A stretch of 63,179 nt of DNA, the filler included. It is 11 parts of 11 records of this genome, joined end to end, with 100 filler letters (N's around TTAATTAATTAA, not from the genome) between each part and the next. Parts side by side here need not be neighbours in the genome. Positions count along the whole stretch, not along the records: positions 45,909 to 55,177 come from SRR7504441_810; 10 more parts are not named here. One strand, given 5' to 3'. The translations under genes were made by a program, and so were the position numbers. The first letter of the stretch is position 1. Every line of letters begins with the position of its first letter. This document shows positions 22,937-58,928 of this stretch, one piece after another. Under the pieces are notes generated by a model that saw only the letters and a list, made by a program, of their open reading frames with translations, was not told the DNA's origin and did not search any database.

Positions 22937-23917
22937 ATGAATGTGCTCGGGTTCCAGCTGACCGCCATCTTCAGCATAGCGGCCGTGGGCGCGCTCGGGG
23001 CGATGGTGCCCGGGGCGATTACCCGGTACACCTCCTCCACGCCGTCCACCGGCTCGGTGTTCAGTTACGCCAACATGTGCTCGTCGGGGGTCTTTCTGGC
23101 CGCAGGGCTGGTACACTTGCTCCCGGACGCCACCGACGACCTGGCCGGGCTAGACACCCCGCTGCCGGTGGCCTCGGTGCTCGCCGGGCTCGGGTTCATC
23201 TTGCTGCTCGCGATCGAGCAAGTCACGGGCCACGCGCAGACGGAGGTAGCCTCTTGCAAGGAGGCCACCGCCACACCCAACGCCTCACCGAGCACCTCCG
23301 ACCACAACCCGCTCAGTGCGCCGCTGGGCAAGGGAGACGCGCTCGCCGCCCCGACCCACTCGAGCTACAGCATGGCCGACGAGACGTACGCCCTGTACGA
23401 GGATGCTCCGGTCCAGTCCGGCAGCTCGAGCTGGGTTACAGCGATGGTCCTCTGGGCCGCCCTTTCGGCGCACTCTCTCCTGGCAGGTGCGGGCCGAGCC
23501 TGCGGGCCAGTCTAATGAGCTGATGGGGCAGGGCTGGCGCTGGGAGCTGACACGGCTGAGGCGCAGTGGGGCGTGCTCGTGGCAATCCTGGCCCACAAGG
23601 GGCTGGCGGCGTTCGCTCTGTGCTGCAGTTTGCTCAAGGCAAATGCGCAGCGGTGTAGCCTTTGGTCGACGTTGGTCAGCTTTGTGCTGACCACGCCTAC
23701 TGGCGTCGTGTTGGGCATGGGGATGTCAACCATACTTGATGGTAGCGACAACTTTACGGGCGTGGTCAAGGCGCTCGCTGCTGGCACGTTTGTATTCGTT
23801 CCAGCCATGGAGCTGATCCCCGTGGAGCTAGCTTCTCCGTGGGGACAGAAGTGGATCAAGCTGGTGGCGTTGGGGCTCGGCTATTGCGGCATGTCTGTTT
23901 TAGCCATATGGTGTTAG
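22937..23917 (+). CDS. ZIP-family zinc/iron transporter
   Basis: SSGVFLAAGLVHLLPD, HSLLAGLALG, AILAHKGLAAFAL, ALAAGTFVFV. One 45-nt GT-AG intron. Confidence 0.92.
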
Positions 23918-24047
23918 TGTCGAGTGCGAATTCCAAGTAAACTCATCATGTAAGTAATATTGCGTACCGGTAAATACTGCAGCACGTATACACCACGTAT
24001 GCAGAAGTACCGAGTAGAGAGGTTTAGATTGTTTAAATTAACAAACA

Positions 24048-25463
24048 TTAGACAACATCAGCCAGCTCATTAATATTCACGCTTGTAGTGGTCGCAAGCT
24101 GCAGCTGCTCAACCGTATCACTATTGCTGTATTGCGTTGCATAGTCCAGCGGCTTGCGGCCCGCGCCGTCTAGCGCATTGGCTGCAGCGCCTGCCGATAG
24201 CAATTTTGCTACGACAGCAGAATTGTCACTCATAGCAGCTAGGTGCAGCGGTGTGCGGGATGCGTTGTTTTCTGGATCCACAGCTGCGTTGGCCGCCACT
24301 AACTGAGTGACCACTTCCAAGTGGCCGTTCTGAGCAGCACAGTGGAGAGGCGACCTGAACACAGATCAACTCATTCATAAAACTACTTGTGCTCACCCGC
24401 CCGAGTTGTTGGCTGCATCAATAACAGCACCGGCCGCGAGTAGGGTCGACACAAGATCACTGTGTCCGTTCATCGCAGCAAGATTCAGCGCTGTGCTCCC
24501 GTTGTCATTAACAGCATCCACGTTGGCACCGGCTGATAACAGCACGACCAGTGTATCGAAATGCCCGCGCTCTGCTGCTGTGTTGAGTGGTGTGCGACCT
24601 CGGTTACTTTCTACGTCGACAGTAGCCTTAGCGGAGAGCAGCTCGGACACGATGTGCGTGTGACCGTTCATCGAGGCGTAGTGCAGCGGCCGGCTGAGTG
24701 TTGAGTTCGCTGAGTCAATCTCTGCGTTTGCCAGCAGCAGCGACCTCACAATGCTCATGTCCCCGCGCATGGCTGCACGGTGCAGCGGTCGGTCGCCGTT
24801 GTTAGTTGCGGCAGTCACATCAGCGTCTGCGCCGAGTAGCGCCAACACTATTTCTTCATGTCCGTTGTCAGCCGCCAGGTGGAGTGGCGTACGCTGCGAA
24901 TTATTGGTCGCGTTGACCTCAGCACCCGCCGAAACCAGCAGAGCTGCAACGCCCGTATGCCCATGTATCGCCGCCCAGTGCAGCGGCTGGCTGCGGTAGT
25001 TGTTGGGCGCCCCAGGATCGGCCCGTGCGGACAGAAGCGCCTGGAGTGCCCCGATCTGGCCGGCCCGGGCCGCGTGATGCAGCGGCGAGCTGCCTGTGTG
25101 TGGCAGCCCCCAGCTGTGCAGTCCGTCGGTCGCTCCTGAGATCGGGGCACCGCTCTGGAGCAGCGCCGGCAGCACGTGCTCCGGCCAGACCGGCGCGTCG
25201 CAGAACTTGTGCACCAGCAGCCTGTGGAGCTGGCGGGTGTCGAACGAGCGCCTGAGTACCTGGGGTAGGAAGAGCCGGAGGGGCACGCTGTGCAGCCAGC
25301 GACAGGCCCGTCGGGCCCTGGGCAGGTGCTCGAGGTGCAGGCAGGCCAGGCACTGGGCGGCCATTCCTTCGTCCAGACGGGCCAGCTGATCCCGGCCGCT
25401 CGCCACCGACCGGATCGCCTCACGCGGGGCGGGAGCCGGGCTGCTGGTCGGGGCTGCCACCAT
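24048..25463 (-). CDS. F-box-like plus ankyrin-repeat protein
   Basis: DQLARLDEGMAAQCLACL...RARRACRWL resembles an F-box; about nine TPLHxAA repeats; one 42-nt intron near 24355-24396. Confidence 0.85.
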
Positions 25464-25625
25464 CCGGCCGTCGCAGGGCCGGCAGACGGCGGCCGCTTCC
25501 CAGCCCCGCGCCTGAGTGCCCTGGAACGGCATTGCTCGTCAGGGCTCCGGCTTCCAGGCGCAAGCCCGCCGTTGGGGCTGTTTCCCAGAACGCGCCACCT
25601 ACAGCACGACCGGCGGTGGAGAGGC

Positions 25626-28600
25626 ATGGCCGGCAGCCTGGTTTTGGTGCTGGCGTGGGTCGGGCTGGCGGCCCCCGACTCGGAGCGCGACGCGCTGCTG
25701 GCGGTGTACGCCAGCACGGCCGGGGCCGGGTGGCGGGTCAAGGCAAACTGGAGCTCGGTCCAGCCCCTGTGCAGCTGGCACGGCGTGAGCTGCGACCAGG
25801 CTGGCCGCATCCGCGGGCTGTGGCTGGTCGACAACCGGCTGAGCGGGACGCTGCCCGCCGAGCTGGTCCAGCTCTCCCTGCTCAATCGGCTGGTCTTGCC
25901 GGGCAACCAGCTCGTCGGCAGCCTGCCGCCCGGTCTGGGGGGGCTGCAGCTGCACACGCTCGCGCTCGAGAGCAACCAGCTGAGCGGGGCGCTGCCGGCC
26001 GGGCTGAGGGATCTGCGCAAGCTGGTGTTGGACCTAAACCGTTTCAGCGGGACGCTCCCAGATCTCAGTCGGGCGAAGCATCTCGAGTCGATACAACTGG
26101 AGAGGAACCGCATCAGCGGGACCGTACCTAGTGCACTGGGGCGGCTGACCAAGCTCTTCCGGCTCAGGCTGTCAGGTCAAGCCACAGGCAAGATCAGCGG
26201 GACCGTACCGGCGCAGCTCGGGGGTCTAAGTCGGATGAACAGTCTGCACATGTATGATACTCGGATTAGCGGCACGCTCCCTGAGCTGGTGCAACTGAGT
26301 AAATTGCACTGGTTAGTGCTCTACAGGAACCTGATCAGCGGCCATATGACGAATGGGCTATCCAGCATGACGGCACTGAGGTTTATGGTGCTGTATGATA
26401 ATCATATCAGCGGTACTCTGGCGCCAGAGCTCGGATCACTCACTGCCCTTCAGACATTCGACTCATCATATAACAGGCTTAGCGGCATGTTACCGGCAAC
26501 TCTGTCCAGTCTGACAATGCTGTCAACGTACCGTCCTGCGTCATTCTTCAATTCGTCTTCACACAAGGAAGAGTATCGATTTAACCACCAGCACGGCAAT
26601 CTGAGCTACGTGCGTATGCCTTGTGGCTGGGCTTCAGGGCGGGACAGGTAGTACAAAGGCTCACTTCTATGGTTTGGACCTTCTCGGTGTCGCATAACAA
26701 ACTCAGTGGTACTTTGCCCAGTCAACTTGCCAAGTTATCGTTGCTGAAGCAGTTCGCCGGACACAATCACTTTAGCGGAACAATTCCTAGTTCTTTCGGT
26801 GGGCTCACAGAGGCAAAATACTTCTGGTTCGAACAAAACAAGTTCTCGGGAGTGGTCCCGTCAGAACTGTCTAGGCTCTCACACCTCTCTTTCATGGGCC
26901 TTGCCAGCAATCGGCTGGAGGGCACCATGCCAGCTTGGATCGGTTCTTTGACCGTGCTTAAAGTCATGCTTGACCTTTCATCCAATCAGATCAGTGGCAC
27001 TGTTCCCGCCGAAATCGGCAGCCTTCGTCGACTAATGAATCTCAAACTTTACCAGAATAAGATCAGCGGCTCTCTGCCGACCGGAATGAGAAATTTGACT
27101 GCTCTGAGGGTCCTTGCCCTTTATGAGAATCAGCTGAGCGGCGTGGCTCCCTCTTGGGAGATGCTTGGTCAGCTGAGCGTCTTGCTCTTGTTTAAAAACC
27201 ACCTCTGGGGTCGCCTGAAGCTGCCCAGCAGCAGCACACATCTGAAGTCATTGCTGGTGCACGCCAACCGCTTCTCTTGCCATATTGACGAATCTGGCGA
27301 TGGACTTTTGAAGCTTGACCAGAAACTCAGCCTAGTTCTGCCAGGCAATCTTTTCTCTGAAGAAATTCCAGCTTGGGTTCCGATGCACGCAGCTATTTTC
27401 CTCACAGAGGCGACCTTGTTCTGGAACCAGTGGAATGTGCAGATAGTAGAGGCTGCTGGTGGCACCTTGCTGCTGCTACTCTGTGTGCTCTGGCTGACCA
27501 ACGGCAGAATGCACGAATATGTCTGGTTCAAAGTCACCACTCCTCTTGAAGAACTGCAACTGAGAGGGAGCCTCGTGCTGGCAGTATGGTCAGTGTTAGC
27601 GATAGTACTGCTGGTCCCGATTTATGTAAACGGAGCCAACTTCTACGGTGGGTCCCGTGACGCATCAGCATTTCCCACTAACTCATGTTGGCTTGCAGAG
27701 TGCGGCAGGCCGTGGTTGCACGCTTCGCTTGCTTATTTATCTGACGATGCGACTTTAGAATGGTGTGCTGCAGTTGGTGCTTGTGTTTATGCGGTGGGTT
27801 AGCTGCCGTGCCTGCTTGACCGTCTCGGTTCTCAGGCTGTAGCTGGGTTTGCTATCGCAATGGTGCGTGCCAAGGCAAGAACCTGCATACCATTGACGCT
27901 ATACCGGCGATCTACGAGTGGCACGGGCGCACTTTTGGACAATTCCAGTCAGCTATCCGTGACACGGACCGCCCTGCTGATCGGAATCTGGCTGCTGCTA
28001 GCCTGTGTGTTGAGTATTCCGACCTTTCTCTACGGGCTAGCCTCTTCGATTCCAGTCGAAGATAACATCTTGCGGCTGGGCCGCAGCACCCTTGAGAGCG
28101 TCACTACATTTATCGGGGCGATCATGTAATCCGAGGTCTCGGTGCGCCCGTGAGCATGTATTTGTCCAGGTATGCCATCGATGCCTGTTTGATTCCAGTG
28201 CTCGCAAATTGGATGTGCTCACAGTTCAAGTTGAAGGACTATGATATGGCGGTACAGCTCATGATGGTATGCTGTCAAAACCGACGAAGACTCAATTGTA
28301 GTTTGCTGCAGATGGCAAGACTGATGACATCGAGCATTGTGCCATTCACCACTGTAATGGTGTTCAATCAAGCATGCTCAGCCAAGTGGCTCTTACTCTG
28401 GACCAAGTGCCAAGACAGCGACTCATGGGACATCTCAGGAAATCTGGTCGGGTCGCTCGCTGATCCTTTTTCAAGTACTGAACGATACATGCTGCACCAT
28501 GAGGACATCTGCGCGCCATTATATTCACACGACTGCCCGAGGGCTCAAGTGGATGTCCTTGGAGCGCTGTTTTTCGAAAAGCTATGGGTCGCAGCTTTCG

Positions 28601-29306
28601 TTGGGCCAGTGTGTGCTCTTGTGTTGTGCACGCCCCAGGCTCGGCAAGCTAAGGAATGGCTGATGAGGAAAGTATTTAGACGGCACGATTATGTGGCAAG
28701 CAAGACAATCGCGACAGAGATGGTTAGCACCAACTTGCTCTTTGAGTTTCCCGTCATACTCGGGTTCTGTGTAAGTGGAATACATAGCCTTGGCGTGTGC
28801 TTGTGTGAGCATGTGTTTGCTCACAGGTCCCGCTGCTGCTGCCTGTGGCGTGCCTTGCTATGGCCCAAGGAGTTGCGACACTCCACTTGGCTGTACGGAT
28901 GGAGGTTCAGTTCGACCAAGTATCTCGACCATCGACAAAATACATGCTTGCCGGTGGTGTTGCTGGGCTTGTTTTCAATGCTTGGTTCTTCTTCTCATGT
29001 AACCTGAGAGGTCGATATCTAGTGGCCTGTGCCGCACCAGTCCTCTTCGGGCTTGCCTTCTGGGCTCACGACCCTATGCGTCGTTGCTCAGCGGGCGACA
29101 AGGCGGCCAGGGCATCGCCCGATGGCTGGGGTGTAAGCCTTCAGGAGCCCCTACTTGAGATCGATTTACAAACAATAGATCGGCCAAGGGAGCGCGTAAA
29201 TTCCGACGTCAGCGAATTCGGCCATGGTAACAATAGCTTTATTGAGAACGTCGAGAACGATCTCAGTTCGGAGACGAATGGTAGGACAGGTAGGTGCACA
29301 ATGTGA
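25626..29306 (+). CDS. Signal peptide + plant-type LRR ectodomain + multi-pass membrane domain
   Basis: ERDALL...W...CSWHGVSC cap, many LxLxxNxLSGxLP repeats, then about 10 hydrophobic segments over several short introns. Confidence 0.8.
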
Positions 29307-29905
29307 CTAGATTCTAAGCGGCACTCTTGCGATTCCTACGAGTTGCAACATTGCATCTATCCAGTCTTTGTTACGGTATGGAGTTACCATTACCTTTACG
29401 TACAACATCTTTATGTCACACCCTAGCCTAGCTTTGCTTTAGTGAATTAATTGATTCTAATCCAAATAAAGCTCAAATGAACGCCCATTGCGGCCAAAAG
29501 CAGACATTGCGGCCAAGCAGATCATCAGCACCATTNNNNNNNNNNNNNNNNNNNNNNNNNNNNNNNNNNNNNNNNNNNNTTAATTAATTAANNNNNNNNN
29601 NNNNNNNNNNNNNNNNNNNNNNNNNNNNNNNNNNNTCGCCGGCATTTCTGGCGAAGCCTCTGGTCTGCTCTGGTCCTTTGGCGCAATGCCGAACCAAACT
29701 TTATAAAGCTAAGCTTCAAGATAAGGGCAATGCGTAGAACAAGAAACATAATTATACGCTTATAGCTACTGTGGACGCTAGCGCAGTCATAATTCAGTCA
29801 AATATAACAGTTACGAGTCTGTCTCGATCGCGAGGCACCCCACCCCTCACTTGTTGTTTTGCATCGCGCCTATGTGAATTGTGGTAGAATTGTGGCTCGA
29901 CGAGC

Positions 29906-34450: not shown

Positions 34451-34550
34451 NNNNNNNNNNNNNNNNNNNNNNNNNNNNNNNNNNNNNNNNNNNNTTAATT
34501 AATTAANNNNNNNNNNNNNNNNNNNNNNNNNNNNNNNNNNNNNNNNNNNN

Positions 34551-37605: not shown

Positions 37606-37705
37606 NNNNNNNNNNNNNNNNNNNNNNNNNNNNNNNNNNNNNNNNNNNNTTAATTAATTAANNNNNNNNNNNNNNNNNNNNNNNNNNNNNNNNNNNNNNN
37701 NNNNN

Positions 37706-39319: not shown

Positions 39320-41837
39320 TTACTTGGTCATTGACACCACAATCGAGATGTCCTCAACTAGTTGCTTAAACTGGTCCGGGAAGTTATCGAATTTCACGGT
39401 GCCCGACGTGATGTAACTCTCGAGTAACGCTTCGCTGATGGGCTGACTCTGGCCGTCTTTCACAAGATCCTCCACAGCATCGAAACAGGCGGTGCACATG
39501 TGGAAGACAACCGCACAAAGACGATACAAGCTCGAAAACATCTCAAACTCGGTGACTGAGCCATCTCCGTCACAGTCTAGTATTTCGAACAAGTGTTGGA
39601 TCCTGTTCTGTACATCCAGCTTCGGGTCGAGCAGCTTCATTGCACTCTCAAACTCATGTTGGTCGATCGTGCCACTTTGGTCTCTGTCAAGGAATCCGAA
39701 GAGCGCTTCGACCATTCCGCGAGGCTCGGCCAGCGCCTTGGTCCGCAGTTGCTGCCCAAAGCTAGCACTGAGCTCCTGTCGCACACAATCAGCATCAAAG
39801 CTTGGCACTCGGGGGCACCAGGGTCGTAGTCAGGGATGCGGGCACGCCCTGAGCGTCGTGGGCTGGGAGCAGTGGGAGCATGGCGAGGAACAGCTCCAGT
39901 TGATTAGCCAACATATTAATCGCGAGATCGTTAAACCCTTCCAAAGACAGCGCCTGGATGTCCGTCATCTGCAGACCCTTTATCACGATCATCCCGAGTA
40001 TCTGAGTCTCGTCAAGGATGGCCTTGAGCCGCTTTCTCTTGCCCGAATCCGAGCTGCCCTCTGTGAGTGACCAGGATATCAGCTGATCCACTCGCTCGCC
40101 AACCGGATCGGCTTCTCCCCCGAGCAACCCCTCACTGTAACGCTGGAGCTCCTCTAGTGACACTTCCCCTGATTGGTCGTCGTCAACGGCCTTCACAGCA
40201 GACCCAACTGCCAGTTGCAGCAAAGGTGCCACAAATCCAGCTCTAACGACCCCCAGCAAGATCCGCGCAATCTCGAGCCCACACAGCAGCCCTGCCTTGA
40301 TGAACGCACTCGCCTCGTGCTTGTTGATGTCTCCCGAGCTGTCCAAATCCATCAACATAAAAACACTGAGCGCCAGCATCTCCGGGTTATCTACGCACGA
40401 CTCGCGCCAATTGGTCAGCTCCAGTAAGCTCTCACAATTCTCTCGGCTCAGCCCGATGTTGGCTGGGTCTAGAAGCTTGATCAGATGCTCAGCGATCGCG
40501 CCTGAGGAACGCCTTACTTGCTTGCCGATCTCCTGGTCCACTTTAGCCCGAAGCTGCTCGCACTGCTCCTGAGATGGACCGTCACTGCTGCCAGCCAACA
40601 GAGGGACTGTCTCGAGCAGGCCCGTCAGCTGATCGCCACAGTGCGTCACCACAAACCACTCGAGGTGCGCCGCCACCAGGTACGCAACCGCCTCGTTCTC
40701 GGCCACGGGCTCCTCCTTGTTGTTGGTAAGGTCATCGAAGAATGATATGAGCAGGTCCTGGTGGGCTTGCCTGGCTCGCGTCAGTCGCGCTTGGAGACCA
40801 AGCAGCTCGCTGTGCCGAATGCGGAGGGCCGCCACCTCCTCCTGCACTGGGAGCAGCTCGTCGAGAGCCTCAATCACTGCAGCAGGCAGCTTATTGCACC
40901 CAGCGCTCTCGAGCTCCTCGGAGTCCGAAGAGAGCGTTTTCAGCTCCGAACATACCTGTCCACAAGCTCCCCAGCCGCGCGGCCTTCAGCGGGCACCTTA
41001 GCGCTCTCTCTGCCGAGCCTCTCCTTGTCTGCTGCAATCTCGCCCAAATGCTTGGTGAATGACAGCGCCGCTCGACGTATTGCCGCCTCCTTGATCTTTC
41101 GGCTGTCCGCGTCCAAGGCTTGCCTGAGCTGAGCCTCTATCTCATGAACTTCCTCCAGTCGCTCGATCTCGTCCAGACACTCGGCTGCCGGGTTTGTCTG
41201 GAACCGGTGGATTGCCTTGACAGGGTTACTGGCCAGCCGATGGACTGCAGCAAACAATCTGGCCTGCTGGACACTGTGCCCTTCCGCCTTCAGTTTCTTC
41301 TGGAGCGTTTTGCACCGCTTGCGCAGCGCGATGCATTCCTGCTGGGCGTTGGCCAGGATTCCGTTAAGTGTGCTCCTGAACTCGACAGCGGCGGCCTGGG
41401 AATCGGCACAGCCAAGCACAGCGTTCCTCCTAGCCATGTTGGTGGCTTTTAGGCAGGCCCGCTCGGTAGTGTCGTGGTGCAGTCGGTTAAAAATCTCGGC
41501 CCAGGCTTGGTGGCCTTTCTTGAGCTGCTGGCTGAGCTCAGCAGCCTGCTTTGCGACTGGGCCTGCCCTGTGATCTTGCAGCTGACTCAGCAGATACAAG
41601 CAATCATCCAATTGATCACGGAATGCGGACGGCTGGGCAGCCGCTGGTCTAGGCATCCTTTCAGTCTCGCCAACCTTTGTGTTGCACTTGTCTGCTCCTT
41701 TGGGCATTTTTAATCTCGGTTTGCCCTTGGGGCTCGCGCCTGCCCCATCATTGGCAGACGGCAACTTCCGTTCCGCCCGGGCCTGGTACTGCTGCTTCTG
41801 GGGAGGCGGCAGACTGGCCCAGAGCCCCCGGATCCGG
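39320..41837 (-). CDS. Coiled-coil multi-EF-hand protein (5' truncated)
   Basis: DLDSSGDINKHE, DDDQSGEVSLEE, DRDQSGTIDQHE, DCDGDGSVTEFE. Introns of about 41 and 40 nt join three ORFs. Confidence 0.8.
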
Positions 41838-41937
41838 NNNNNNNNNNNNNNNNNNNNNNNNNNNNNNNNNNNNNNNNNNNNTTAATTAATTAANNNNNNN
41901 NNNNNNNNNNNNNNNNNNNNNNNNNNNNNNNNNNNNN

Positions 41938-44429: not shown

Positions 44430-45808
44430 ATGGGAAACACCCTCGAAGGCGCGGGTGAGGCACTGACCGAAGCCAGTGATGCGGTCGGTGAAGCGGTCAC
44501 CAAGATGGTTTCTGATTCGAAGCTGACTGACGACGAAGCCGCGCGTGTGCTCAAGCTGTTTGAACGCATAGACGTGGACGGGGATAAGGCCCTGCAGATC
44601 AAAGAGGTCGAGGCCTGGCTCGCCTCGATGGGCAGTAGTCCCGTGGCCAAGGTCAGGGCGGAGCGGGTGAGACGGCAGCTCATGGCTTGTGACTGGTGGG
44701 GCCACCGACCGCTCACCCGCTCACCCGAGGGGGCAGGGAGGGGTTAGAGATGACCGAGGAGGGGCTGCTGCGGGGGGTCGCTTCGCTCAAGCAGCAGCTG
44801 AGCCCTCAGGAGTTTAATAAGATGCTCGAGGACTGGGATCACCAGCCGTTTGATATTCAGCTCCGCTGGCAGCCAGTACGCGACCTGGCGTTCATGTCGC
44901 TCAGCCAACTCCAGCAAATCAACGTTCATGAGCTCAAGCAGTGCAAGAGCGTCCCCGACGCTCTGGCCCTGCTATTCAAGCTTGGGCACACTGACGAGAC
45001 GGCGCTGGCTGTGCTGGGCAGGCTGCGCTCTATCTTCCAAGAGGTAGACACTGACGGGAGCAATGCGCTGGACCCGATGGAGCTCGTGGCCGTCTTCTCC
45101 AAGATCTACAAGGGTACCAACAGGAACTCAGTTGTGCGTGCTGCCCGCGAGCTCATCGCCAAATTTGACATCAATGGAGACGGTGAGCTTCAATTCGACG
45201 AGTTCGTCATCATGGTACGGAGAGGCGCCTTTTTTGAAAAGTACCGTGCCTGTCAGCTGCCCCACTGAGCCTGGGGGCAGGTTTTTCGGGTACCCGGTGC
45301 CTGACCCGATTGCGGACCATATGCTCAATCTGGTGGACGGAGGAGAATTATTCTCTGGGCAGATGGGCGTAATCCGAGACCGTTTAAATTCTGAGCAGGC
45401 CACAGCAAAAGTGCGGTTTATCCGCAGGACTGGGAGCCGCAAGTCTGTCAGAGTGCTACGGTTGATCAATTCGAGTGCCGAATTGGCGCCAGGCGAGCTG
45501 GATACAATCGGTGTGGATTATCGGGAGCTCCAGTTACTTGCCAAAGCCCGCTGGGATTGTCGGTTCCATGCCCTTGATCAGGATGCTTCCAAGAAGCAGA
45601 CCAAGCAAGTCAAAGATCAGGTGCTAGGACACGACCAGCTCACGGAGATTGGTGAGCATGCTGACGGCGGGTTGAGAGAGTGTGGACAGGCGGGGAGATG
45701 CTGGAGGCACTCCCGGAGCTGCAGGAGCTGTTCACAGGGACCACAGACTGCTCAGTCGGCTACTTCTTGGAGGTGAGTTGTAGAGCCTCTGCTGAGGGCA
45801 CCTGGCTG
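44430..45808 (+). CDS. EF-hand protein with possible N-myristoylation site (3' truncated)
   Basis: MGNTLE; DVDGDKALQIKE, DTDGSNALDPME, DINGDGELQFDEF. Introns of 41 and 40 nt. Confidence 0.8.
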
Positions 45809-45908
45809 NNNNNNNNNNNNNNNNNNNNNNNNNNNNNNNNNNNNNNNNNNNNTTAATTAATTAANNNNNNNNNNNNNNNNNNNNNNNNNNNNNNNNNNNN
45901 NNNNNNNN

Positions 45909-48900
45909 GCAAATGAAGTGACGATTGAGTCATCTGATAGTTTGCTAGTTGCTAGCGATAATGTTAAGGTCGCTACCACATGGAATGGCACGATCGCATT
46001 GGATCCGAAGGGCGGGTCTGTACAAATTGGTGGCTTGGCGCTTCAAGATACATCGATTCACTCAAAGGACGTACTTAAAGGGCTCGTACTCGACTCGTCC
46101 ATTGTACTGCGGTCACCTGAAGAGGTCGTGGTCCAAAGCTCTTTCACTGTGGACAGTCGGAAGCCTGTTTCTATTCAAGCTCCGTCAGTGGAGCTTGCGA
46201 GCACAGGCCTAAATGATGACCTGGTGCTCGCCACACGGGGAGGCGAGATTCAACTAGGAGATGAGCTCAAAGTGGACGCTGCGGGTCTGCTTAGCTCATC
46301 CAAGCTCAAGGGACTCGACCTGCGTTCTGCAGGGGACATCTCCTTCACTGCTGCCAGAGAGATTCGAATGACAGCACAGCAGATGGATTTGCGCTATCAA
46401 GATCATGTTGAGATCAAAGCAGATTCAATGCGGCTGGCGACAGCAGGACAAGATATAGAGCTTCAACCTTCAGGAGGAAGCGCTGTGATCGATTCAGTTT
46501 TTCTCTCTGGGGCTGAGATTCGTGGCAATGACCAACTGAAAGGTCTCCGGATAGCGAGCGATGCAATGCGCATTGGAAACCCTGACAGTACTCTACAAAT
46601 CATGGGCAAGACTCTTGATCTTCAAGGCACCAAAACTGTAGATCTTGATGCCGGGGAGCAGCTTACTCTCAAGGCACCTGCTGTTTTCGTCTCTGACTCT
46701 CTAACCATTGCTGATGTTGAATTATCTGGCAATTCTTTAACTTCGGGATCATCAAGTGCAGGGCTCACTCTTGACTCCAACAGTGGGATCTGGATCAGAC
46801 CTGGAGAGCAACATCCGGTGGTGGTGGATGGTGGACTCGAAGTCAGAACGTCTGAGCGCATCGCTCTATCAGGGGATGTCAGCCTGGATGGCAACGTAAG
46901 AATGAAAGGTGAGGTGGTGACGGACGCCTTAAGACTTGTCGGCAATCGATTCTCTGGACAGGAAGCGGTCAAGCCATTGGAACTTGCCTCTGTCACTCCA
47001 ATAACAATTGGGAGCAAGGAAGCTGTACAGCTAGCTGGTGATAGTATTGACATTGCAGCCAAGTCGGACATGGTACTGAGTGCTGACGAGCTGAGGTTGC
47101 ACTCCAACAACGACATTATTCTTCAAGATAAGGGCGGGTCTGTGCTGATCGACGGCATTAGCTTGGATGGGAGGGCCATGATGGGAACAGACCCTACAAA
47201 GAATCTTCATGTATTGGCCGACAAAGGGTTGCACATGCAAGCTGACGAAGTGCTTCACGCGCATGCACCTGAGCTTAATTTGGAGGCACAAGACGTGCTC
47301 AATCTGCGAGCACGTCGGATTCAAGCATCCACAAGCACATGGGGCTCAGTGCAGATCGACTCTCCCGGCGGAGGATTGCAGGTAGGGCAAAGTCTCGTAC
47401 TGCAGGACACTGAGTTACAATCTACCGACTCTCTTGGTGGATTAACATTGAACAGCCGGAATGAGCTCGTGTTAAATTCTCCGAAGGTTGTTGTAGATGG
47501 CTCGCTCGAGGTACAGGGTGCCGTGAGTTTACAAGGCAGGTCGATCTCCTTAACTGCAACCGAAGGAAGTGACCTTTTATTGCAAACTGTGGGTGGAGAA
47601 ATCCAGGCTGGCAGTGGAGTGGTCTTTGATGGACCTACAATGCTTCTATCAGATACTTTCAGAGGTAGGCTGGTTGCTGATGGGGCCATGCGCATGTCAG
47701 CTAGCGAGGTGGACCTCCAGGCTGGAAGGACTGTAGTGGCAAAGGCCCGCGACTCTGTTGAGATTGGAGGAGAGTTGATTCAGATTCAGACCGGCTGGCA
47801 GGGTCTGGTGCAGCTCAATGGGAGGGGAGGAGAACTTGTTGCTGGTGGCATATCGTTCTCGGACCAGATTTCGAGTACAGATGTTGTCAAGGGACTGGGG
47901 GTCCGAGCAGATAATCTCCTCCTGCAGGGTCGAAGCATCGATTTGCAGTCAGATGACATGCACCTTGAGGCCAGGTCTCAGCTGAGCCTGGTTGCATCTA
48001 CCATTTCAATGGCGTCCACAAAGCTCAATCAGCCAATTAGGATGGAGCAGACTGTTGTTACAGATCAGTTATCATTAGATGGGAACACTGTTGCTTCACT
48101 TGATCCTGTGTCGGGCCTGAAGTTCGCATCAGATAAAGATCTGACATTCCATTCTCCTCGAGTTGTGATGAACGGGCAACTGCAGGTCTACTCTGAGTCT
48201 GACGTGGAGTTTTCGGCTCACAGCCTGCTACTCAATGCGGAGACAACACATCTCAACACTAATGGCGGAGACGTAATTGCCTCTGGTCTGAGGTTTGATG
48301 GAACTTCGATTGTATCATCCAATGAACTGAAGCCTCTCCGGCTCTTTTCTCCTACAAGCATGCTCCTCGAGGCTGAGCAGAAGGTGTCACTCATGTCCCA
48401 TGATATAGACTTCTCGTCAGATAAGCTCAGCCTTTCGGCCAGCTCTCATTTAGAGCTCTCAACCGCCTGGGGGAGCGAGGGTGTTTCGTTCAACACCCCA
48501 GGTGGACATGTTCAAGTAGATTCACTCCAACTCGGCGCTGCAAACTTGCGCACATCTGACCTTGTATCTGGGCTGGCAATTCGAAGCCGCCGAGGACTGC
48601 AGGTAAGTGCAGCAACAGCACTCACTCTGGGTGCAGAAACGCTCGATCTGACTGCACTGGAGTCGTTGAATATATCAGGCTCCAGCGTGGACTTAAGTTC
48701 TGCATGGAATAGCAAGGTGCAGATCACAAGAGGTGGGCTTGCTGTTGGCCATCAATTGGTCTTTGAGGACACCTCTGTGACTTCTCATGACCATGTTAAA
48801 CCCTTGCAGCTTACCAGCGCATCTGATATCAATCTCAAAGCCAAGGGTGCTCTGCAATTGAATGGACTTGTAGTGGAATCTCGTGTTCATCCTGTCGAAA

Positions 48901-51900
48901 TTCATGGTGCAGGAATTGATCTTCAGACTGCAGCATGGGGCTCGGGAATTCAGATGACAACGAAGGGCGGGCAAGTGAGGATGGGGGATATTGTCGTTGA
49001 CCATGGGGCCATCGAAAGTGCAAATGCTATGAACCCGCTGCTCCTCAGGTCATCAGTTGGGGTCACTATTGGGGATGACAGAACTGACACACGGATCGAT
49101 GCAAGGTCGCTCTCATTGTACTCGTCTGGGCAGACTGAGATCAGCTCAGAAGCAATACGGATTGCAGCCCAAGGAAATTCTGGAATCGAGTTGGATGCAA
49201 CTGTTGTCAGGGTGGCAGATACTGAAATAAGTGGAGCTTCCCTCACTATGGCGGACAAAGCAAAATCAGCTATACTTCGCTCTGAATCATCGATTAGTGT
49301 TAAACCAAGCCATTCTTTGCTCCTTAGCAGCGCTGACTTGACACTCCTGTCACGTCAGCACACAACCATTAGTTCATCCGAGGCCTTGTCAATGACAACA
49401 GGATGGAATGGGCAGGTAGCAGCCCTAGTCCGTGGCGGTGATCTGCAGAGCCAAGATGTGAGGATCTCAGGCAGCACACTGATGTCTTCGAGCATGAAGG
49501 GCCTGCTGCTAGATGCCCCTGCTGGCATCACGCTGTCGAGCCCAGTGCGCATTAACAACAATCTTGAAGTAGAGACCGACGAAATTTCGATGCATGCTGG
49601 CAAGATGTCATTCGAAGCAGATGACCTTTCGTTCTCCACACGTGGTGGTGAAATCCGGGCAAATGGCCTTATCTTGGACGGTACACAGATTTCGTCTTCT
49701 GATCTCCTCAAGCCTGTTGAGATGGCCTCGACCCATGCACTGTCGCTGGCTAGTCCTGAATTGACGGTGACAACTGGCACTTTTGATGTCAGGGCTCAGG
49801 ATCGAATATCAATCAAGGCAAAATCTGTCGAGCTAGAGAGTGGTTGGAATCGGCCAATCGAATTCAGCAATGAACTTCAAGTCCAGTCACTGGAACTTAC
49901 TGGCCAACGGCTACAGAGCACTGACGAGATTCGAGGCTTGTCCCTGCACAGCAAAAGCTTAGTCTTCAGTGGGAGCAAGCAAAGACTCCAGGCGGAGAAA
50001 ATCGAGGCCAGTGCAAGTCGAATGGACCTGAAGGCAGACGTTCTGGATGTTACTGCAGATCAAATCAAACTTGATGCTGTGGGAAGCGAGACCCAGATAG
50101 GCGCATTGCGCCTGGGTGGGGTGGCAGTGGAAACAGAATCGCACCTGACTAAGCCGCTGCTGCTTAGTTCAGACGCTGGTGTCGTGCTCAAAACAGGCTC
50201 TGGCAAGCATGTGTCAATCCATGGCTCGGTGCATGCAACAGGCCCTAGCACCCTCATCGAGGGCGACCAAGTCAACCTGCGAGCTACAGGATGGGGCGAG
50301 GCTGTGAAGCTTGAAGGAAGAGTTGCCATTGGAAGTGCTCTAACAATCAATGGGCCAAGCGTGCATGCCACTGATCATGTGAAACCGTTATCTGTGAGAG
50401 GCGACCTTCTTGAGCTGCAAGCTAAAGACGAGCTTCGTGTTGAGGCTGATATCATTTCTGTGAACGCTGCCAAGGATGTTTCAATATCTGGCGACACTGT
50501 GCTATTACAGAGCAGTCTCAACAAGAATGTAGAGATCAAGCCTACTGGGGGAGCTCTTCTGGTGGATTCCCTGGTACTAGATGGTCACACGCTCCAGACT
50601 TACAACAGCCCTAAAGGCATGCTAATGAGGTCTAACGACATTGGAATCGAAGCAGCAGGCTCCGTAGAGCTTCGCAGTGCAACTGAGCTCCAGGTCCGGA
50701 GTAAATCAGTCATATTCGACGCTGCATCAATCCAGATGGAGACCGAATGGGGGACCTCTGGTATTGTGGTCGACAAGAGCTTAAAGGTGGGCGAGAGTCT
50801 CGAGATTGCTGGCAACACAATCAACTCAGGTGATATCCTTGCTGGCCTCCACATGAGGAGCAATGATGAAATAAAACTTCAATCTCACAAAGGAGTTCGG
50901 ATTGACGGTGCACTTTCTACGAGTGGCAACGCTCCTGTATCACTCTCAGGATCTTCTGTGCACCTTTCTGGGCCTGTGCGAGTCGAACCCCGTGGAGGCG
51001 ACTTTCAGGTCGAATCTCTCGAGATTGATGGCGCTCAAGTCCGGTGGTCGGATAAAGTGAAGCCTTCTACGTTGAGCGCATCAAAGAACCTCGAACTTAG
51101 GGCTGCAGACGAGATGAACATTAGTTCTGAACATGTTACCATCCATGCACAATCCAAGCTCGAGTTGTCCTCACAGGAGCTACGGATGGCAACCTCTGGC
51201 TGGAATCGTGACATCAATCTCCAAACGTCCGGTGGAGCAATTGTCGCGGGCGGACTGGTTCTTGATGGCTCCAGTGTCAATCCTACTGGTGATCACTCGC
51301 CATTGCTTCTCAGGCATAGCCGCGGCATCATCGCTCGGGCTGATACACTGGAAGTTGACAGCCACGATGTTCTCATCTCAGCGGCCAATATGATCGAAGT
51401 AGCAGCCCAGCGAGTCGAGCTGCAGAGTCAAGATGTAAGAATACGGACTTCGCCACTGACTGTAGGCTCGCTCAACTTAGATGGCTCAGGCGTAAATTCT
51501 GATGATGCTCTTGGAAACCTCCTACTTGATTCTCGTCGTGATCTTGTTCTGCAATCTGGTTCCGGGCACGGTGTTCAAATTTTCGGTGCTTTCGAGGCGG
51601 ATTCGCCCCAGGTTAGTCTGACAGGGGATAAGATCAACCTTAGTGTCTCTGGTTTGAATGAGAATCTTCAGCTTGGGCTTCGTGGAGGTGATTTGATGGT
51701 CGATTCTGCTCGCTTTTCGGCAGCTGGATTCGAAAGCCTTGAACGCGTCAAGCCACTTTCCATTCGTGCTGCACATTCCCTTGAGCTCAAAAGCAAAAGT
51801 GTGGGGCTTGATGCTAGTGAGTTGATGCTTTCAGGCGACAGGATTGATTTGCGTTCACCCACACTCGCAGTTTCAACTGGATATGGTGGAGAATTAAGCT

Positions 51901-54900
51901 TTGGGGCTGCTGGGAACCCTGTCCAAGTGTCTGGAATCAATATCGAGGGCAGCGAGCTCCGGCCCGTCCACCTCCACAGTCATCTCAATCTGCGTGCGCA
52001 ATCGCTGGGAATCGCAGCTGAAGACGAGCTGCGTCTAGCATCGAGCTCTGTCGAGATTTCAGCAAGGGACTCCGTGCAGGTGATGGCTTCCCAGACAGTG
52101 CTCCTCGCCAACCAAAAGCTGAACCAGCCTATCAGACTAGATACAGCAGGAGGAGATGTCCAAGTGGATGACACGCGTCTGAATGGAAATTCCCTTTCAA
52201 GCACCAGCATTGCAGGGCTGACAATCCAGTCTGATGAGCAGTTGTTGCTGAAAGCAGGAACAAAGCACAGCGCTTACATTTCTGCACGGGCTGTCGAGCT
52301 CAAAGGAGAAGATGTGCTTGTTGACTCAAGGGCTATTACAATGAGAGCAGAAACAATAGAACTCGATCCCCAGGGCATGGGTGGCTCTGTTTTGCTTGGT
52401 GAGAGCATGGCAATCACGGGACCGCGGCTTAGCCATCAGTCAGAAACCAAGGCACTGCTGCTTCAGGCAGCTGGTGGAATGGCCATTCAAGCCAAAAGCA
52501 TTCACACTACCGCTGCCGTGTATGAAGTCGAAGCAAAGCAGTTGGAGCTCAAGGCGTCAAAAATTGAGATGGAAACTGGATGGAACCAAGCCGTGACCCT
52601 GAATGGCGAGGTTAGGGTTGGCCAACTTGCTATGGAAGGCTCGTCTCTTTCCTCACAGAGTGCCACAGGACTTAACTTTCATTCTGATCGAGAATTGCGT
52701 CTGCGCTCAGACCAGGTGCTGGCCTTGACCAGCACAGATGCGGTGCAGGTTGTGTCTGAGGGTTCTGCAACCCTGAAGAGCGAGCAATCCATATCACTGC
52801 AGACGGCATGGGGTGGGACCACCAGGGTCAGCAGTGGGCTTCTTGTGACTGATGCACTGGAGCTCAGTGATACCCACTTGACTAGTAGTGACGCTGTGCA
52901 AGGACTTGGCATTGAATCTGCCGGCGATCTTACGCTGAGGGCTGGGGATGGTCAGGAAGTGCGGCTCATAGGGAGCACAGTCGAAGTTGAATCGGCAAAG
53001 CCTTTCAGTTTAACAGCAAATACGATAGAGCTCGAGACAAATGGGCTGAACGGTGACATTCGGCTTGCGCCTCGTGGTGGGGATGTCTTGGCAGCCGGTT
53101 TGCAGCTTGCACCCACTGAGATCCAGACTCAGGATCCCGTCAAGGGCTTGGTCCATCGCCACTCTCACCTGAGATATATTGCTGAGGATGGCCAGATTGA
53201 GTTATCCGCACCAGAGACGATTATCAAGGCTACTGAAGCATTCATACAAGCAAATCAGATTCAACTTCAGTCTGGTTGGGACAGGGATATACAGTTAGAT
53301 GCTACTGAGGTTGCCGTAGGGGAATCTGGCATGGTACTTGGCGGCACAAAACTGTATACCGAAGGAGAAGGGGGCAAGCCTCTTCTACTTCGCTCATCAA
53401 AGGCTATCATCGGACGTGCTGACCATGTGGGCTTGCAAGCACAAGATATTACGATGTCAGGCACTGAAGCTGTGAACATTGCAGGCAGTCGTGTTGGAAT
53501 CGAGACTAGTTATGGGGGAGATGTTCGCGTGTCTCATGGGCCTCTTAGAGTTGGTGGTCTTGCGCTCGCTGATTCGAGCCTGAAGTCAGAGCACAGTCTT
53601 GTACTGCAGTCCAGACAAGATATTTCACTTGCCTCACAGGTGGGTACTACCCGAATTCAGGCCGGGGAATTTGTGGTCTCAACGGCAGAGAGGCTGCACA
53701 TGGATGCATCAAAAGTAGAGTTAAATGCAGACGAGACTGTAGTGACTGGAGCTCTGCGAATGAATTCAATTGAGATGGATGGATCCAGAATCAGTCATGT
53801 TGGACAAGTGCTTAAGCCATTGAGGATCGCATCCACCTCTGCAGTGGACATCCAAGGCTCAGAGACTCTCAGCCTGCGGGGAGAGTCGCTCACAATGCAG
53901 CATGAGCGTCTCAGTTTCGATGCACAGCACATCTCGATTGGCAGCACGAAGTGGGATGCTTCAGATCTCTCACTGAAAGGCCGCACTGTCTTTGCAGATG
54001 CCATAGCAATTGATGGCCCGACTCTGGACAGCTTGGAAACGGTACACCCGCTGCAGCTGCGAGCAAAGACGCTAGGGCTGGTGGCCTCTGATCGATTGGA
54101 CATGCAGGCAGGCAACGAAATCGATATTTCTGCGGCAAAACTGGAGCTGCACAGCAAGCAGGGCATCAGGCTCTCCACAGGCTGGAACGCGGAGGTAACC
54201 ACAGACGCCGGTCTTGCAATTGGAGACCATGGTCTGAGGTTCAGTGGTGCAACAATCGGAACTTCCAGCCTCAATGTGAAAGACTTGGTCCTTGAGTCTG
54301 AAAAGGACCTAACGCTCAAGCCACAAGGAGCCGTCCTGGTGCATGGTGGACTAGTAGTGGACTCAGAGTCTCCCTTCAAAGTTGCCAGTCCATCCATCGA
54401 GCTCGAGGCTGCCCCAATGGGACAAGGCGTGAGCATCCAGTCCCATGGAGGAGCTGTGCGAATTGCAAAGGTCCAACTCAAGGGCACACGTATCAGCTCT
54501 CTAGATGCAGTCAAAGGTCAGGCTATCGGTAAGAACAGTTCTCCAATTCAAATGCGTGGCAGTGCCATAGGGCTGTCTACTGAAGGATCCATGGATTTGA
54601 CATCTAAAGCGGCAATAGACCTGAAAGCACAATCGATTCTGCTGGATACCGGGCCATGGGGTGGAGTAACAGTTGGGAGGCGCGGATCGGTTCAAGTGGC
54701 AGGCATTGATTTTGATGGTCAGAGCATCAGGCCTGCTGAATCAGCTAATGCATTAACATTGCGCTCTGAAAACGCTGTGGCACTCAAAGCCCACAGCCTC
54801 GAGGCGCAGGCAACCGACATTGATCTCACAGCTACAGGCAGTGTTGAAATTTCAGCGGCTACACTGCAGCTCAAGACCGCGCATGACAGGCTAGTAGACA

Positions 54901-55177
54901 TTACAAATGGCCTGCGAATTGGACACAGCGGGCTGCAGATTGATGGATCCTCTGTGGAAGGAGTGTCGCCTGTGAGCCCCTTGAAACTCAGTTCAGGGCA
55001 TCAGTTGGACCTGAAAGCCAGTGGCTTGCTTCATATGAGATCAGATGCCCTGACACTTGCTGCTGATCAAGGTGTCAAACTGGTTGCTCCATCGATTGGT
55101 TTCGCAACGGGCCTGAATGGAGATGTAAGAGTTGAGGCAAGAGGTGGTGCGTTTGCCATTGGTGATGAAATGAAGTT
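45909..55177 (+). CDS. Giant beta-strand repeat protein (>3089 aa, both ends missing)
   Basis: One uninterrupted frame across the whole contig; ~75-80 aa unit TGWNxxIxL...GGxV...LxLDGxxIxSxDxLK(G/P)LxLxS. Confidence 0.9.
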
Positions 55178-55607
55178 NNNNNNNNNNNNNNNNNNNNNNN
55201 NNNNNNNNNNNNNNNNNNNNNTTAATTAATTAANNNNNNNNNNNNNNNNNNNNNNNNNNNNNNNNNNNNNNNNNNNNTTATCCAGATAATTATAATTATT
55301 CGTTTATGTGGTTGTGTTTCTCACTGGACTTTGCAATCTCCCAAGTTCAAACGATCGAATTAATTTGGTTCCAAATATATATGTATTACTATTGTAATAC
55401 AATTGAAGTTCGAGTACTACAATCGAAGTACGAGTACTAACTACTTGGAATAGTAATTAGTAACTTGATTGTCCCAATCATCAACACAATAATGAAAACT
55501 TCCGCACTTAGACAGAATCTCCAAGGATTTGGTCTATTGTATAACGTAACGTTGATCAGCATGACTAACTCAGCCGCCAAAGAACACAGATCAGAATCTG
55601 GATTGGC

Positions 55608-58600
55608 CTAGAACAATGGGGCGTCGTGGCCCTCATCCATCACCTTGAACAGTTTATTCTTGGCCGACGGCTTGCTAGCCACGTCCTGCAGGCCCACATT
55701 TACTCACTGGCCCATTATGTAGCAAAGCAGGCTCTCACCCGGAAGAGAGAGGAGCGGTCCATTATGGTGCGCAGATCCTCATCGCTCAGGTGCTCCTTGT
55801 TGATCTTCTCATCAGCATACCTGTTATCACGACGGTAAATATTAATCGCGTTAGCTAAATACTTGTCCTCGAGCATGTCCATCAGCTCCTGTACATCGAC
55901 CGCCTTGATGTCCTCCTTCTTTGAAGTAGCGCCTGAATCACAAGCCCTTAGACACAGTCATTCGAGCTCTCAGCCTCACCAGCCTCAACAAACTTTCCAT
56001 TTGAAACCACCAGGTGCTCCAGCCGCCGCTTGTTGGCTGCTTTCTCGATCATCTTCTCCTCGACAGAGTTGGCCGCACACAGTCTGTAGACCAGAACAGG
56101 CTTCTTTTGGCCAATCCGGTGGCAGCGGTCCTGCGCCTGCGGTCCGAGTGTTGAACAGTCACAACCCGGATATTGAAAACAGCACCTGTAGGTCGGCTTG
56201 AGGGTTCCAGTCACTATCAAAGATCACAACAGTGTCTGCGGCCACCTACCACCGGCTATACATGGTGCCCGCAGGTGGCAGCACCAGGTTGATTCCGAGT
56301 CCACCGGCGCGCGTGCTGAGCAGGAAGCAGTTGACGTTGGGCGACTTGTTGAAAGAGTCCATCTGATCCTGCATGAAGCGCTCTCAGCCACAGACCAGAG
56401 GGCAAAAGCGCTCTCAGCCATAAGTCACCTGCCGATCGTCCAGCTTGGTTGATCCATCGATCCGGCAGTAGTTGAACCCCCTGTTGGCTGGGGTGAGGCC
56501 ATGTGTCGGTGCTCTTAACGCTGTTATCATCATCACCGCAAGATCATGTAGTCCTCGATGATTGAGAGCATCTTGGTCATTTGCGAGAAAATCAAAACCT
56601 TGTGCTTCTGAGCAAAGAGCTTGGGCAGCAGCCTGCGCCAACGCTCATTTGCTGATCACAAAAGGTTAAGAGCGTCACCGGTCGAGCAGTGCCATCTTAC
56701 CAGAGGAGCTCACCTGATCGCACTGATAAGAATGAAGATACATCTAACACAATCACCAGCGACTCGTCGGTCTGGCCTGGGTCGACTTCCTCAAACAAAA
56801 ATGGATGGTTGCACACCTGATCATAGCAATAATAATAATTATAACAATAACAATAATAATAGCCGGGGGCGCTATGCCTTGCGGAGCTGCATCAGGAGAT
56901 TGTTGAGCGAAGTCTTGGGAAGCGGCTTGGCAGTGCTCTTTTTGGTGCTAGGGGCCAGCTCCTTGGACATTTTGAGCGCCTTTTTGCCCCTGTGCTTGGC
57001 CGAAACCTGGCATCGCCAACGTTCAAAGCATTTCTTGCTTAAGGCTCGACCTTGGCCTGCACCAGCTCGTCCATATCCTCCGACTCGTCCACCTGCAACA
57101 GTCAGTTAGCGTCAAACAAATTGAAACTACGGTACCGCGTGCAGCCATTGGCGCTCTGTCATCCCCTGAGCCTCATCGTAGCATACATCCTCCTTAGCCC
57201 GCTGGCCTCTGCCCATCGGCTCCTCCTCCTCGTCGCTCTCAGGCGGCTCGATTGAGCGGTACATGAGGATATTCCGGTACATCCTGAGCTGCTCAGCCGA
57301 GTTGCCACAGTAGAGCACGATCTCCTTTTTCCGCGGAATTTCCTACAGGCCACCTATCATTAGTGAGAAATTATTCTTAATGGACCAGGTCAACGTCCAT
57401 TTTCTGCCGACGGAGCATGAATGGCTTCAGGATTGAGTGAAGCTTGGCCACTATCTGATTCTCCTGCTCCTGCTGAATGATCCGGTTGGCGTCGGCCACG
57501 TTTGAATGGTCAAAGTCAAACCTTTGGTGACCGCCAATCAGCATCAAATTTGAATCAAACGCACCAGCTCTGGAAGGCGGCGAGCGAGTCAAAGATGTCC
57601 GGCAAGATAAAATTCAGCAGAGACCTGAACATGATAGTCATATGAACAACAATAACAGTTCACACCACAGCTCAGTCAGATCGTTCTGAAGGGGCGTGCC
57701 CGTGAGCAGCAGCCGATTCGAGGCCGGGACAGTCTTCAAATCCCGAATCAACCTGCACTACCAGCTCAATTCCCTCATTCAAAGCCACCGCCCACCTGCA
57801 GTCCTTGTTCTTGAGCCGGTGGCCCTCATCCACCGTGAGATATTTCCAGCCAGTGCTCCAGGCCCGGGCCGGCCGCTGCAGGAACGCGATGTCCCGCATT
57901 GCAATCTCGAAGGAAGTCACCACAACATGCACCTGCAGCTGGTTATTTCACATCAAACTAGACTTGCACCTCGTCAGTGCCCCACTTCTTGCGGAGCGCA
58001 GTCCGCTCGGCCTGGTCACGCATATCAATGAATAAATAATGAGATTTAGCATGATGCCTGGGAGCCATGGTAGAGTTGCGGACTCATTGCCGGGCACCAG
58101 AACTCAACCTCGCGCACCTGAATAAATAAATGAAGATTTCCCAATTGCTCGCCCGCACCCAGTTCCGGAGCACTGACAGCGGGCCCACCACCAGGAACGG
58201 ACCCTGTCAAGCATGTTCCCAGTCACGTGCTGACGCACACAGTTAACCCACCCGGACGCCTTGCGAAAAGATGTGTGCCAGGAACGCAATCGTCTGGACA
58301 GTCTTGCCCAGGCCCATCTCGTCGCCCAGGATCCCGTTCATCCCGTTCTCGTACAGCGACACCAGCCAGGCCGTCCCTTGCAGCTGGTAGTCCCTCATCT
58401 TCCCGCCGACGATCAGCTCCGGTTGCACCTCATTGCCCTCGGTCTTAGGTTGCTTGCCCTTCCCCCCGGTTGAGGCAGCCTTGCGTTTCTGGCCGACTTG
58501 CTGGCCGTTTTCCGTTGCCAGCTCGTCCCCGGTGGACTTGTTGGCACCCTGGATCTTCGCATCCACCTTCCTGATCTGGGAGCTCACGAATTTCGAGTAG

Positions 58601-58828
58601 CACGCAGTCTTGTCGAGCAGGGAGTGCAGGCTGTCCATCACAATCAGCCCCTGGCCCACGGGCGATGGCTATGCCTGTCCATGCGCTTGCGCTCCTTGTT
58701 GGTGTCGAGGGATTTGAGCACCTCGCCGGCCTCTAGCTGCTTCTGGCTCTCGGCCAGGTCGCTTTGCTTGTTCAGCTCGGCCTCCATTTTCTCCAGCTTC
58801 TCCACGCTGCGGAGAAGCTCCCGGCGGC
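55608..58828 (-). CDS. DDM1: SNF2-family chromatin remodeller DDM1/HELLS (5' truncated; 21 introns)
   Basis: [81 protein letters not shown] after manual splicing. Confidence 0.92.
56828..56861. repeat. Imperfect (AAT)n microsatellite inside a GC-AG intron
   Basis: aataataataattataacaataacaataataata. Confidence 0.8.
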
Positions 58829-58928
58829 NNNNNNNNNNNNNNNNNNNNNNNNNNNNNNNNNNNNNNNNNNNNTTAATTAATTAANNNNNNNNNNNNNNNN
58901 NNNNNNNNNNNNNNNNNNNNNNNNNNNN

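Follow-up and report, generated by a model that had tools for sequence, protein, structure and literature searches.

What kind of protein is encoded by a contig that is open reading frame from one end to the other, and what organism does it come from? The question is raised by positions 45909-55177 (plus strand; record SRR7504441_810) of a 63,179-nucleotide stretch of DNA, here called the window, in which 11 unlinked contigs of 3.0-12.2 kb are joined by 10 artificial linkers. The entire contig piece is a single frame of 3089 codons that has neither start nor stop, and it is filled by a tandem array of diverged units. We take it to be an inner portion of a genuine gene, maintained by selection, whose product is longer than 3089 residues. 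We further think it probable, on balance, that this protein forms a three-chain beta-helix rod, which would serve as an extracellular stalk or fibre of a marine eukaryote and belong to an undescribed family.

The frame is as the original prediction had it, long, uninterrupted and devoid of cysteine: read from 45909, the translation holds 3089 codons with 0 stops and 0 Cys, and the remaining five frames carry 67-184 stops. The linkers, which a scan of the window showed to be ten identical copies of the form N44-TTAATTAATTAA-N44 with stops in all six frames, flank the piece on both sides (45809-45908 and 55178-55277); 45909-55177 is therefore one complete, separate contig, and the gene is cut at both ends. 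Since none of the contigs joined in the window is linked to another, the order of genes and their neighbours are uninformative, and arguments drawn from them are invalid. That no intron ties the piece to a host, as had been remarked from the letters alone, holds with greater force for the same reason. The 9-mer AAATGAAGT occurs at 45911-45919 and again at 55168-55176, 2 bases from the contig start and 1 base from its end; a circular or collapsed join is unlikely, because the two ends lie at different positions of the repeat unit, and the sharing may be due to chance. Two long open reading frames (ORFs) run antisense within the giant frame, at 46622-47116 (minus strand, 164 aa) and 53795-54514 (minus strand, 239 aa), and one antisense frame has just 67 stops across 9.27 kb. 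These two ORFs are most likely shadows of a biased codon pattern and not genes.

The repeat array occupies 45957-55085 on the plus strand. A profile hidden Markov model (HMM), started from a single unit and refined in rounds against the protein itself until it converged at 41 matches, delineated 40 full units of about 76 residues (i-E-values 2.5e-12 to 1.9e-22) and a partial unit 41 at 55089-55172 (plus strand), which is cut by the contig end and matches profile positions 2-25 only. The original prediction of about 40 diverged units of some 77 residues is thereby confirmed with little change, the mean spacing being 76.1 aa. The units tile residues 17-3088 with no gap larger than 2 residues, and this unbroken tiling leaves no space for another domain or for a retained in-frame intron. 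The recurrent unit positions read L..GG......L.L.G....S....K.L.L.S., and identity to unit 1 ranges from 14 to 38% across units. At the DNA level, Tandem Repeats Finder detected no tandem array, and the direct repeats amount to two short ones of 25-27 nt. From this divergence, and from the lack of a repeat at the DNA level, it follows that the array is ancient and that every unit is unique at that level. An artefact in which a recent tandem array had collapsed during assembly was considered and ruled out, there being no DNA-level repeat longer than 27 nt. A six-frame search likewise ruled out the same repeat elsewhere in the window, the one segment with a match being the piece itself.

Hydrophobicity along the protein has a period of 7.74 residues with a second band near 2.1-2.5, from which we infer some ten short beta-strands per unit. 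The dominant periods are this one and that of the unit itself (about 76 residues), with no 12- or 6-residue peak among the top 15. Leu, Ser, Gly, Ala and Val together make up 51% of residues, Ser and Thr 18%, and the protein is acidic (379 D+E vs 256 K+R). N-x-S/T sequons are depleted, with 5 present vs 16.2 +/- 3.5 expected from 500 shuffles, which may point to selection that keeps N-glycans off a secreted, tightly packed rod.

That the frame is maintained in nature is borne out by seawater sequence data. Four public runs were used, two of DNA from two studies (X1 and X3) and two metatranscriptome RNA libraries from one study (X2 and X4). They yielded 34 short contigs colinear with 45909-55177 (14 from X1, 4 from X3, 12 from X2 and 4 from X4), of which 21 are at least 99% identical to it, 12 fall at 95-99% and 1 at 90-95%. 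Divided into 30 bins, the stretch is covered in 20 by X1, 6 by X3, 13 by X2 and 6 by X4, the uncovered parts being uninformative. No joints or indels were seen in the contigs of the four runs. Among the 40 differences listed between the window and the environmental contigs (three more are not listed), 23 are synonymous, vs 25% expected (binomial p 1.2e-5), and 0 create a stop. Given this excess of synonymous differences and the freedom from indels and stops, the frame is under purifying selection in natural populations. A single RNA contig with loose ends at 46329-46361 is uninformative.

What, then, does the unit fold into? Its best Pfam match is Sarcoglycan_1 (PF04790), at 63.5 bits vs a gathering cut-off of 32.5 (E 2.5e-17) in three stretches, a score that sums repeated partial matches; the best stretch, residues 41-183, covers profile positions 60-222 of 259. 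DUF3540 follows at 37 bits vs a cut-off of 27.9 (E 4.2e-9), Phage_spike lies just above its own cut-off (29.7 vs 28.2 bits, E 6.4e-7), and DUF2345 falls under it (24.7 vs 30.7 bits). The same families recur among 42 relatives of the protein, with Sarcoglycan_1 in 18, DUF3540 in 8 and DUF2345 in 7. In two profile searches of the PDB, 9 of 12 and 14 of 18 matches were named fibres, spikes, tail parts or sarcoglycans, including tail fibres, adenovirus fibres, VgrG/gp5 spikes, tailocin fibres and gamma- and delta-sarcoglycan. Gamma-sarcoglycan aligns twice to one and the same part of the unit profile, through stretches some 80 residues apart. The available text of two structural papers describes the three chains of beta-, gamma- and delta-sarcoglycan as forming one bent beta-helix (PMC12404760, PMC12750041). 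In the ESM Atlas no cluster scored above 0.85 (recognition 825), and its rows, one of them a bacterial DUF2345/Sarcoglycan_1 cluster, serve as leads only.

Units 13-16 (312 aa; 48681-49616, plus strand) were modelled as a monomer and as three copies. The three-copy model reached interface scores (ipSAE) of 0.75, 0.79 and 0.75, vs 0.00 for the best of 3 controls, with 1867-1908 contacts, a predicted local distance difference test score (pLDDT) of 80-84 and at least 88% contact agreement between runs. Of 30 proteins whose structures were solved as pairs, 21 reach the ipSAE mark applied here, and of 23 solved as single chains none does. Between copies, the best-defined pairs join residue i with about i+8 or i+9 (50-59, 43-51, 64-73), an offset that matches the one-strand stagger expected of an interdigitated triple helix. 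The modelling thus predicts a three-chain beta-helix assembly, which is supported but not proven. The likeness to a trimeric beta-helix of the sarcoglycan/gp5 type, first proposed from motif resemblance, has gained the Pfam and PDB profile matches and a three-copy model that stands out from its controls, and it is still a prediction. The same proposal had named a homotrimer model with a Foldseek search as a check, and here the outcome is divided: the trimer passes its controls, but Foldseek, run on the monomer model, returned nothing significant. In the solved three-chain TLP-12 fibre the rise is 9.6 Å per two strands, according to the preprint's available text (bioRxiv 10.1101/2025.09.30.679562). 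With roughly 400 strands per chain at 4.8 Å, the fragment alone would form a rod of about 190 nm, within the 100-200 nm originally estimated for a trimer.

Several of these results pull away from a triple helix, and most of them pull towards a single-chain, three-sided beta-solenoid rod, similar to filamentous haemagglutinin or autotransporter passengers, with no trimer and a length of about 64 nm for the fragment. The AlphaFold2 monomer of units 13-16 folds alone into stacked short strands (pLDDT 66.9, predicted TM-score 0.56). Its best, non-significant Foldseek matches are single-chain beta-solenoids, namely tapirin (6n2b), Ag43 (4kh3), HxuA (4i84), VacA p55 (2qv3) and LpxD. A single-chain rung of 23 residues with three sides would give the same 7.7-residue period, so that the observed 7.74 is compatible with it, and Fil_haemagg_2 is matched in 1 of the 42 relatives. 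The ipSAE is moreover the model's own confidence, calibrated on two copies and not three; only 1 of 7 eukaryotic proteins without an older solved relative reached the mark, and the three-copy pass may reflect memory of solved triple helices. All PDB sequence matches are also weak, with E from 4e-4 to 1. Even so, the monomer's pLDDT is just 66.9 vs 80-84 for three copies, the ipSAE of 0.75 stands against controls at 0.00, no Foldseek match reached E<=0.001 (all were at E>=0.25), and the Pfam and PDB neighbours are mainly trimeric families. We accordingly regard the solenoid as unlikely, while noting that it survives better than any other alternative to the three-chain rod.

The family to which this rod would belong is rare. 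When 1.84 billion cluster representatives were searched with a profile built from the 40 units, 125 proteins passed E<=1e-3, of which 36 reached E<=1e-10 and 14 reached E<=1e-30, and the relatives with full units are fragments of 78-2430 residues. All 29 family clusters looked up, each with full units, are environmental (ENA 18, JGI/IMG 7, Logan 2, 'merc' 2); none comes from a named genome, and none has an annotation beyond 'hypothetical protein'. The source label 'merc', carried by P0004 and P0017, is taken to be the marine eukaryotic catalogue that, by its available description, was assembled from 775 metatranscriptomes (10.1101/386110). Three relatives, P0006, P0016 and P0018, come from the same contigs (two on record, the longest 2931 bp), which indicates that the gene of that relative is split by introns or frameshifts. 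Other relatives indicate what may lie on either side of such an array. P0003 and P0009 have a mutually homologous, unannotated repeat region of about 400-700 residues ahead of their 76-aa units, and in P0012 seven full units are followed by Cys-rich stretches and further repeats, and then by a C-terminal C-type lectin domain (Lectin_C, E 6.3e-14).

Other searches added no member. Scans of metagenome contigs with the protein and with P0023 found no relative by a pattern method that detects close relatives only, and a word-indexed protein search (proteins of 1697-5401 aa, and also a 4-unit alignment) returned nothing, even though that alignment includes members of the database; the index is evidently so swamped by common words of the repeat that the blank carries no weight. 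We found no description of such a protist family in the literature, the supplementary candidate lists of the TLP-12 preprint lying outside the scope of that search; an evolutionary survey whose query, in its available text, was alpha-sarcoglycan (PMC4582122) concerns a different family and has no bearing here. We conclude that the family has no Pfam model of its own, is undescribed, and has been seen so far only in marine environmental sequence data.

The more distant profile matches align with part of the unit only, and one of them bears on origin. In P0022, 12 repeats match unit positions 7-38 (N-D-I-x-L ... G-G ... L-D-G) at E 1.1e-22; the protein has 0 full units, ends in Peptidase_S74 and, lying on a 2.1-Mb contig of an NCBI record, is very likely bacterial. 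The likeness to phage tail-fibre repeats that was first noticed in this sequence is therefore real as far as it goes, both of the motifs quoted for it occurring in the translation, but it is partial, being confined in P0022 to those positions. Peptidase_S74 tail-fibre proteins of this kind share half the unit and lack the full 76-residue unit; the domain occurs in 0 of the 42 relatives, and the fragment does not include its own C-terminus.

Could the contig come from a bacterium, phage or giant virus that was binned together with the eukaryote, and encode a protein akin to a tail fibre or spike? The resemblance of the first half of the unit to P0022 favours this, as does the bacterial and phage affiliation of DUF2345, DUF3540 and Phage_spike. 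The piece is also an unlinked, intronless contig of 9.3 kb. On the next piece, by comparison, a gene for a HELLS/LSH-like SNF2 helicase (55600-58700, minus strand) has at least 10 short exons in changing frames within about 3 kb, vs 9.27 kb here without an intron. The GC content at third codon positions of the piece (0.489) is the lowest among 14 ORFs compared, and its codon usage correlates with theirs at r 0.03-0.53 only, for which reason codon usage was dropped as proof of host origin. The stretch is present in RNA libraries, but metatranscriptome contigs may contain DNA.

On the other side, tblastn found 0 matches in 50,697 phage records, PHROGs and NCBIfam gave no family match, and scans of IMG/VR (with four family members as queries) and of GTDB genomes, which detect close relatives only, showed none. 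The viral origin that the original prediction had raised thus found no backing in the phage records, in PHROGs or, for those four queries, in IMG/VR. Nor do the relatives fit a bacterium or phage well, given 29 of 29 from environmental assemblies, two from marine eukaryotic metatranscriptomes and one with a C-type lectin. Composition argues likewise for the host bin. Within 1-12246 and 22706-29535 two compositions lie on the same contigs, at GC 0.62-0.69 and 0.51-0.58. The tetranucleotide (4-mer) profile of the giant piece correlates at r 0.22-0.33 with the first class, the bin-typical GC-rich DNA, vs 0.70-0.78 with the second, the coding-rich segments, among them 6001-12246 (HECT gene) and 26706-29535 (leucine-rich repeat, LRR, gene). 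Taken together, we judge a eukaryotic origin likely, the link to this host, drawn from binning and composition, being weak, and a co-binned origin somewhat less likely still than the solenoid, with a giant virus of protists as the alternative origin least well excluded.

The other pieces carry plainly eukaryotic genes. Besides the SNF2 helicase they include a HECT-domain ORF (6242-6967, minus strand) and an LRR ORF (26621-27802, plus strand), each in the lower-GC part of its contig, as well as eukaryote-type ORFs for a 2OG-Fe(II) oxygenase and two EF-hand proteins at 16672-18264 (minus), 44696-45268 (plus) and 39795-40877 (minus). The best relatives of the helicase are EukProt and JGI proteins at 71-72% identity, while the haptophytes Prymnesium and Haptolina reach only 45%, so that the lineage of the bin is without a close named reference. 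One whole contig piece, 12347-15379 (plus strand), consists of tandem thrombospondin type 1 repeats, with 16 TSP1_spondin stretches in three ORFs. The first of these ORFs is open at the contig start, and the 4-mer profile of the piece is among the closest to that of the giant piece (r 0.73). It could encode a further extracellular protein with an adhesive role or, conceivably, be a portion of the giant gene itself. The remaining linkers lie at 12247-12346, 15380-15479, 22606-22705, 29536-29635, 34451-34550, 37606-37705, 41838-41937 and 58829-58928.

A heterotrimer of three paralogous chains, as in beta/gamma/delta-sarcoglycan, would agree with the heterotrimeric members of the best Pfam family, as described in the available text of one study (PMC12404760), and with the several distinct relatives in the same environments, but no paralogue was found within the window and the homotrimer model is already confident, which makes this alternative to a homotrimeric rod improbable.

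How does the protein compare with the triple beta-helices already described? Sarcoglycans are small type II membrane proteins with an N-terminal anchor and a Cys-rich C-terminal end. Their chains (PF04790; PDB 9c3c, 8yt8) have about 290 residues (263-291 in the PDB matches) and about two such units, whereas the repeat protein has at least 3089 residues, 40 units and 0 Cys; they form a heterotrimer in animals, whereas the repeat protein comes from a marine environmental assembly and is predicted to be a homotrimer. In the spikes formed by T4 gp5 and by VgrG of the type VI secretion system, the helix spans about 100-200 residues and comes after OB-fold and gp27-like domains. The repeat protein would share with these spikes (DUF2345, Phage_spike; PDB 8gra, 9gtr, 6rbk) the strands of about 8 residues and the one-strand stagger, and its profile matches to them are weak (VgrG at E 4e-4, plus gp5-like spikes). 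The head domains of such spikes (gp27-like, OB-fold) have no Pfam match in the fragment, from which the true N-terminus is absent, or in the 42 relatives.

The closest parallel in scale is the TLP-12 glycofibril, for which Amoebophrya proteins of about 20,000 residues are the proposed source. As presented in the available text of the preprint, it too is a giant protist protein with tandem repeats and an interwoven three-chain beta-helix, triangular in section, at 4.8 Å per strand; it differs in its 12-residue GSxxS-type repeats with 6-residue sides, its heavy O-glycosylation and its C-terminal ICA domain (bioRxiv 10.1101/2025.09.30.679562). The repeat protein has instead a 76-residue super-repeat of 7.7-residue strands, the GSxxS motif is absent from its unit consensus, and no ICA domain was detected in the fragment or the 42 relatives. 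Filamentous haemagglutinin/TpsA and Ag43 are also long, repetitive, cysteine-poor beta rods, but the sequence neighbours of the repeat protein are trimeric instead, and searches for Fil_haemagg and autotransporter families gave no Fil_haemagg match in the protein and DUF3739 at E 0.85 only. By defining features, then, the protein is not a sarcoglycan, a spike or a TLP-12 protein, yet it most likely works as they do. We also raise, tentatively, the possibility that it is the first long example of a marine-eukaryote family whose unit is an ancient module of the sarcoglycan tower, there present in two copies, and in part of phage and type VI secretion spikes.

We propose that three chains would wind round a common axis, each staggered by one strand against the next, as in the T4 gp5/VgrG spike and the sarcoglycan tower, and that the assembled product would be a stiff, acidic, cysteine-free rod. 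Judging by the relatives, the array may have the second repeat type ahead of it and, behind it, Cys-rich stretches and then a C-type lectin. Those flanks, together with the geometry of the rod, lead us to suggest that it would serve a marine eukaryote outside the cell, as a stalk or fibre that keeps a binding module off the surface, or else as a surface hair; the extrusome, spine and adhesin roles put forward at the outset stand as candidates. It has to be set against this that the gene ends are absent from the contig, so that no signal peptide, membrane anchor, trimerisation chaperone or tip domain is visible, and that no hydrophobic anchor was found in the relatives (no 19-mer above 1.6).

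Three-chain beta-helices are chiefly familiar from the short spikes of phages and secretion systems and from the tower of the sarcoglycans. The first report of giant ones in protists dates from 2025, in a preprint whose available text describes pond-water fibres of unknown function (bioRxiv 10.1101/2025.09.30.679562). If our reading is right, the family described here would be another repeat family, to all appearance unrelated to the first, for which the same architecture is predicted. Sub-micron beta-helix fibres would then be a recurrent material of the protist surface, with a bearing on prey capture, adhesion, sinking and particle formation. For structural biologists, the family would offer a 76-residue module, free of cysteine and poor in sequons, from which rods of any chosen length could be cut. 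It would also provide the first non-animal sequence relatives of sarcoglycans. On the more tentative reading of the unit as an ancient module, protists would make sub-micron homotrimeric fibres of this kind from a single gene, tipped with lectins or other heads for binding, and the ectodomain of the animal sarcoglycans would be a miniature relic of such fibres.

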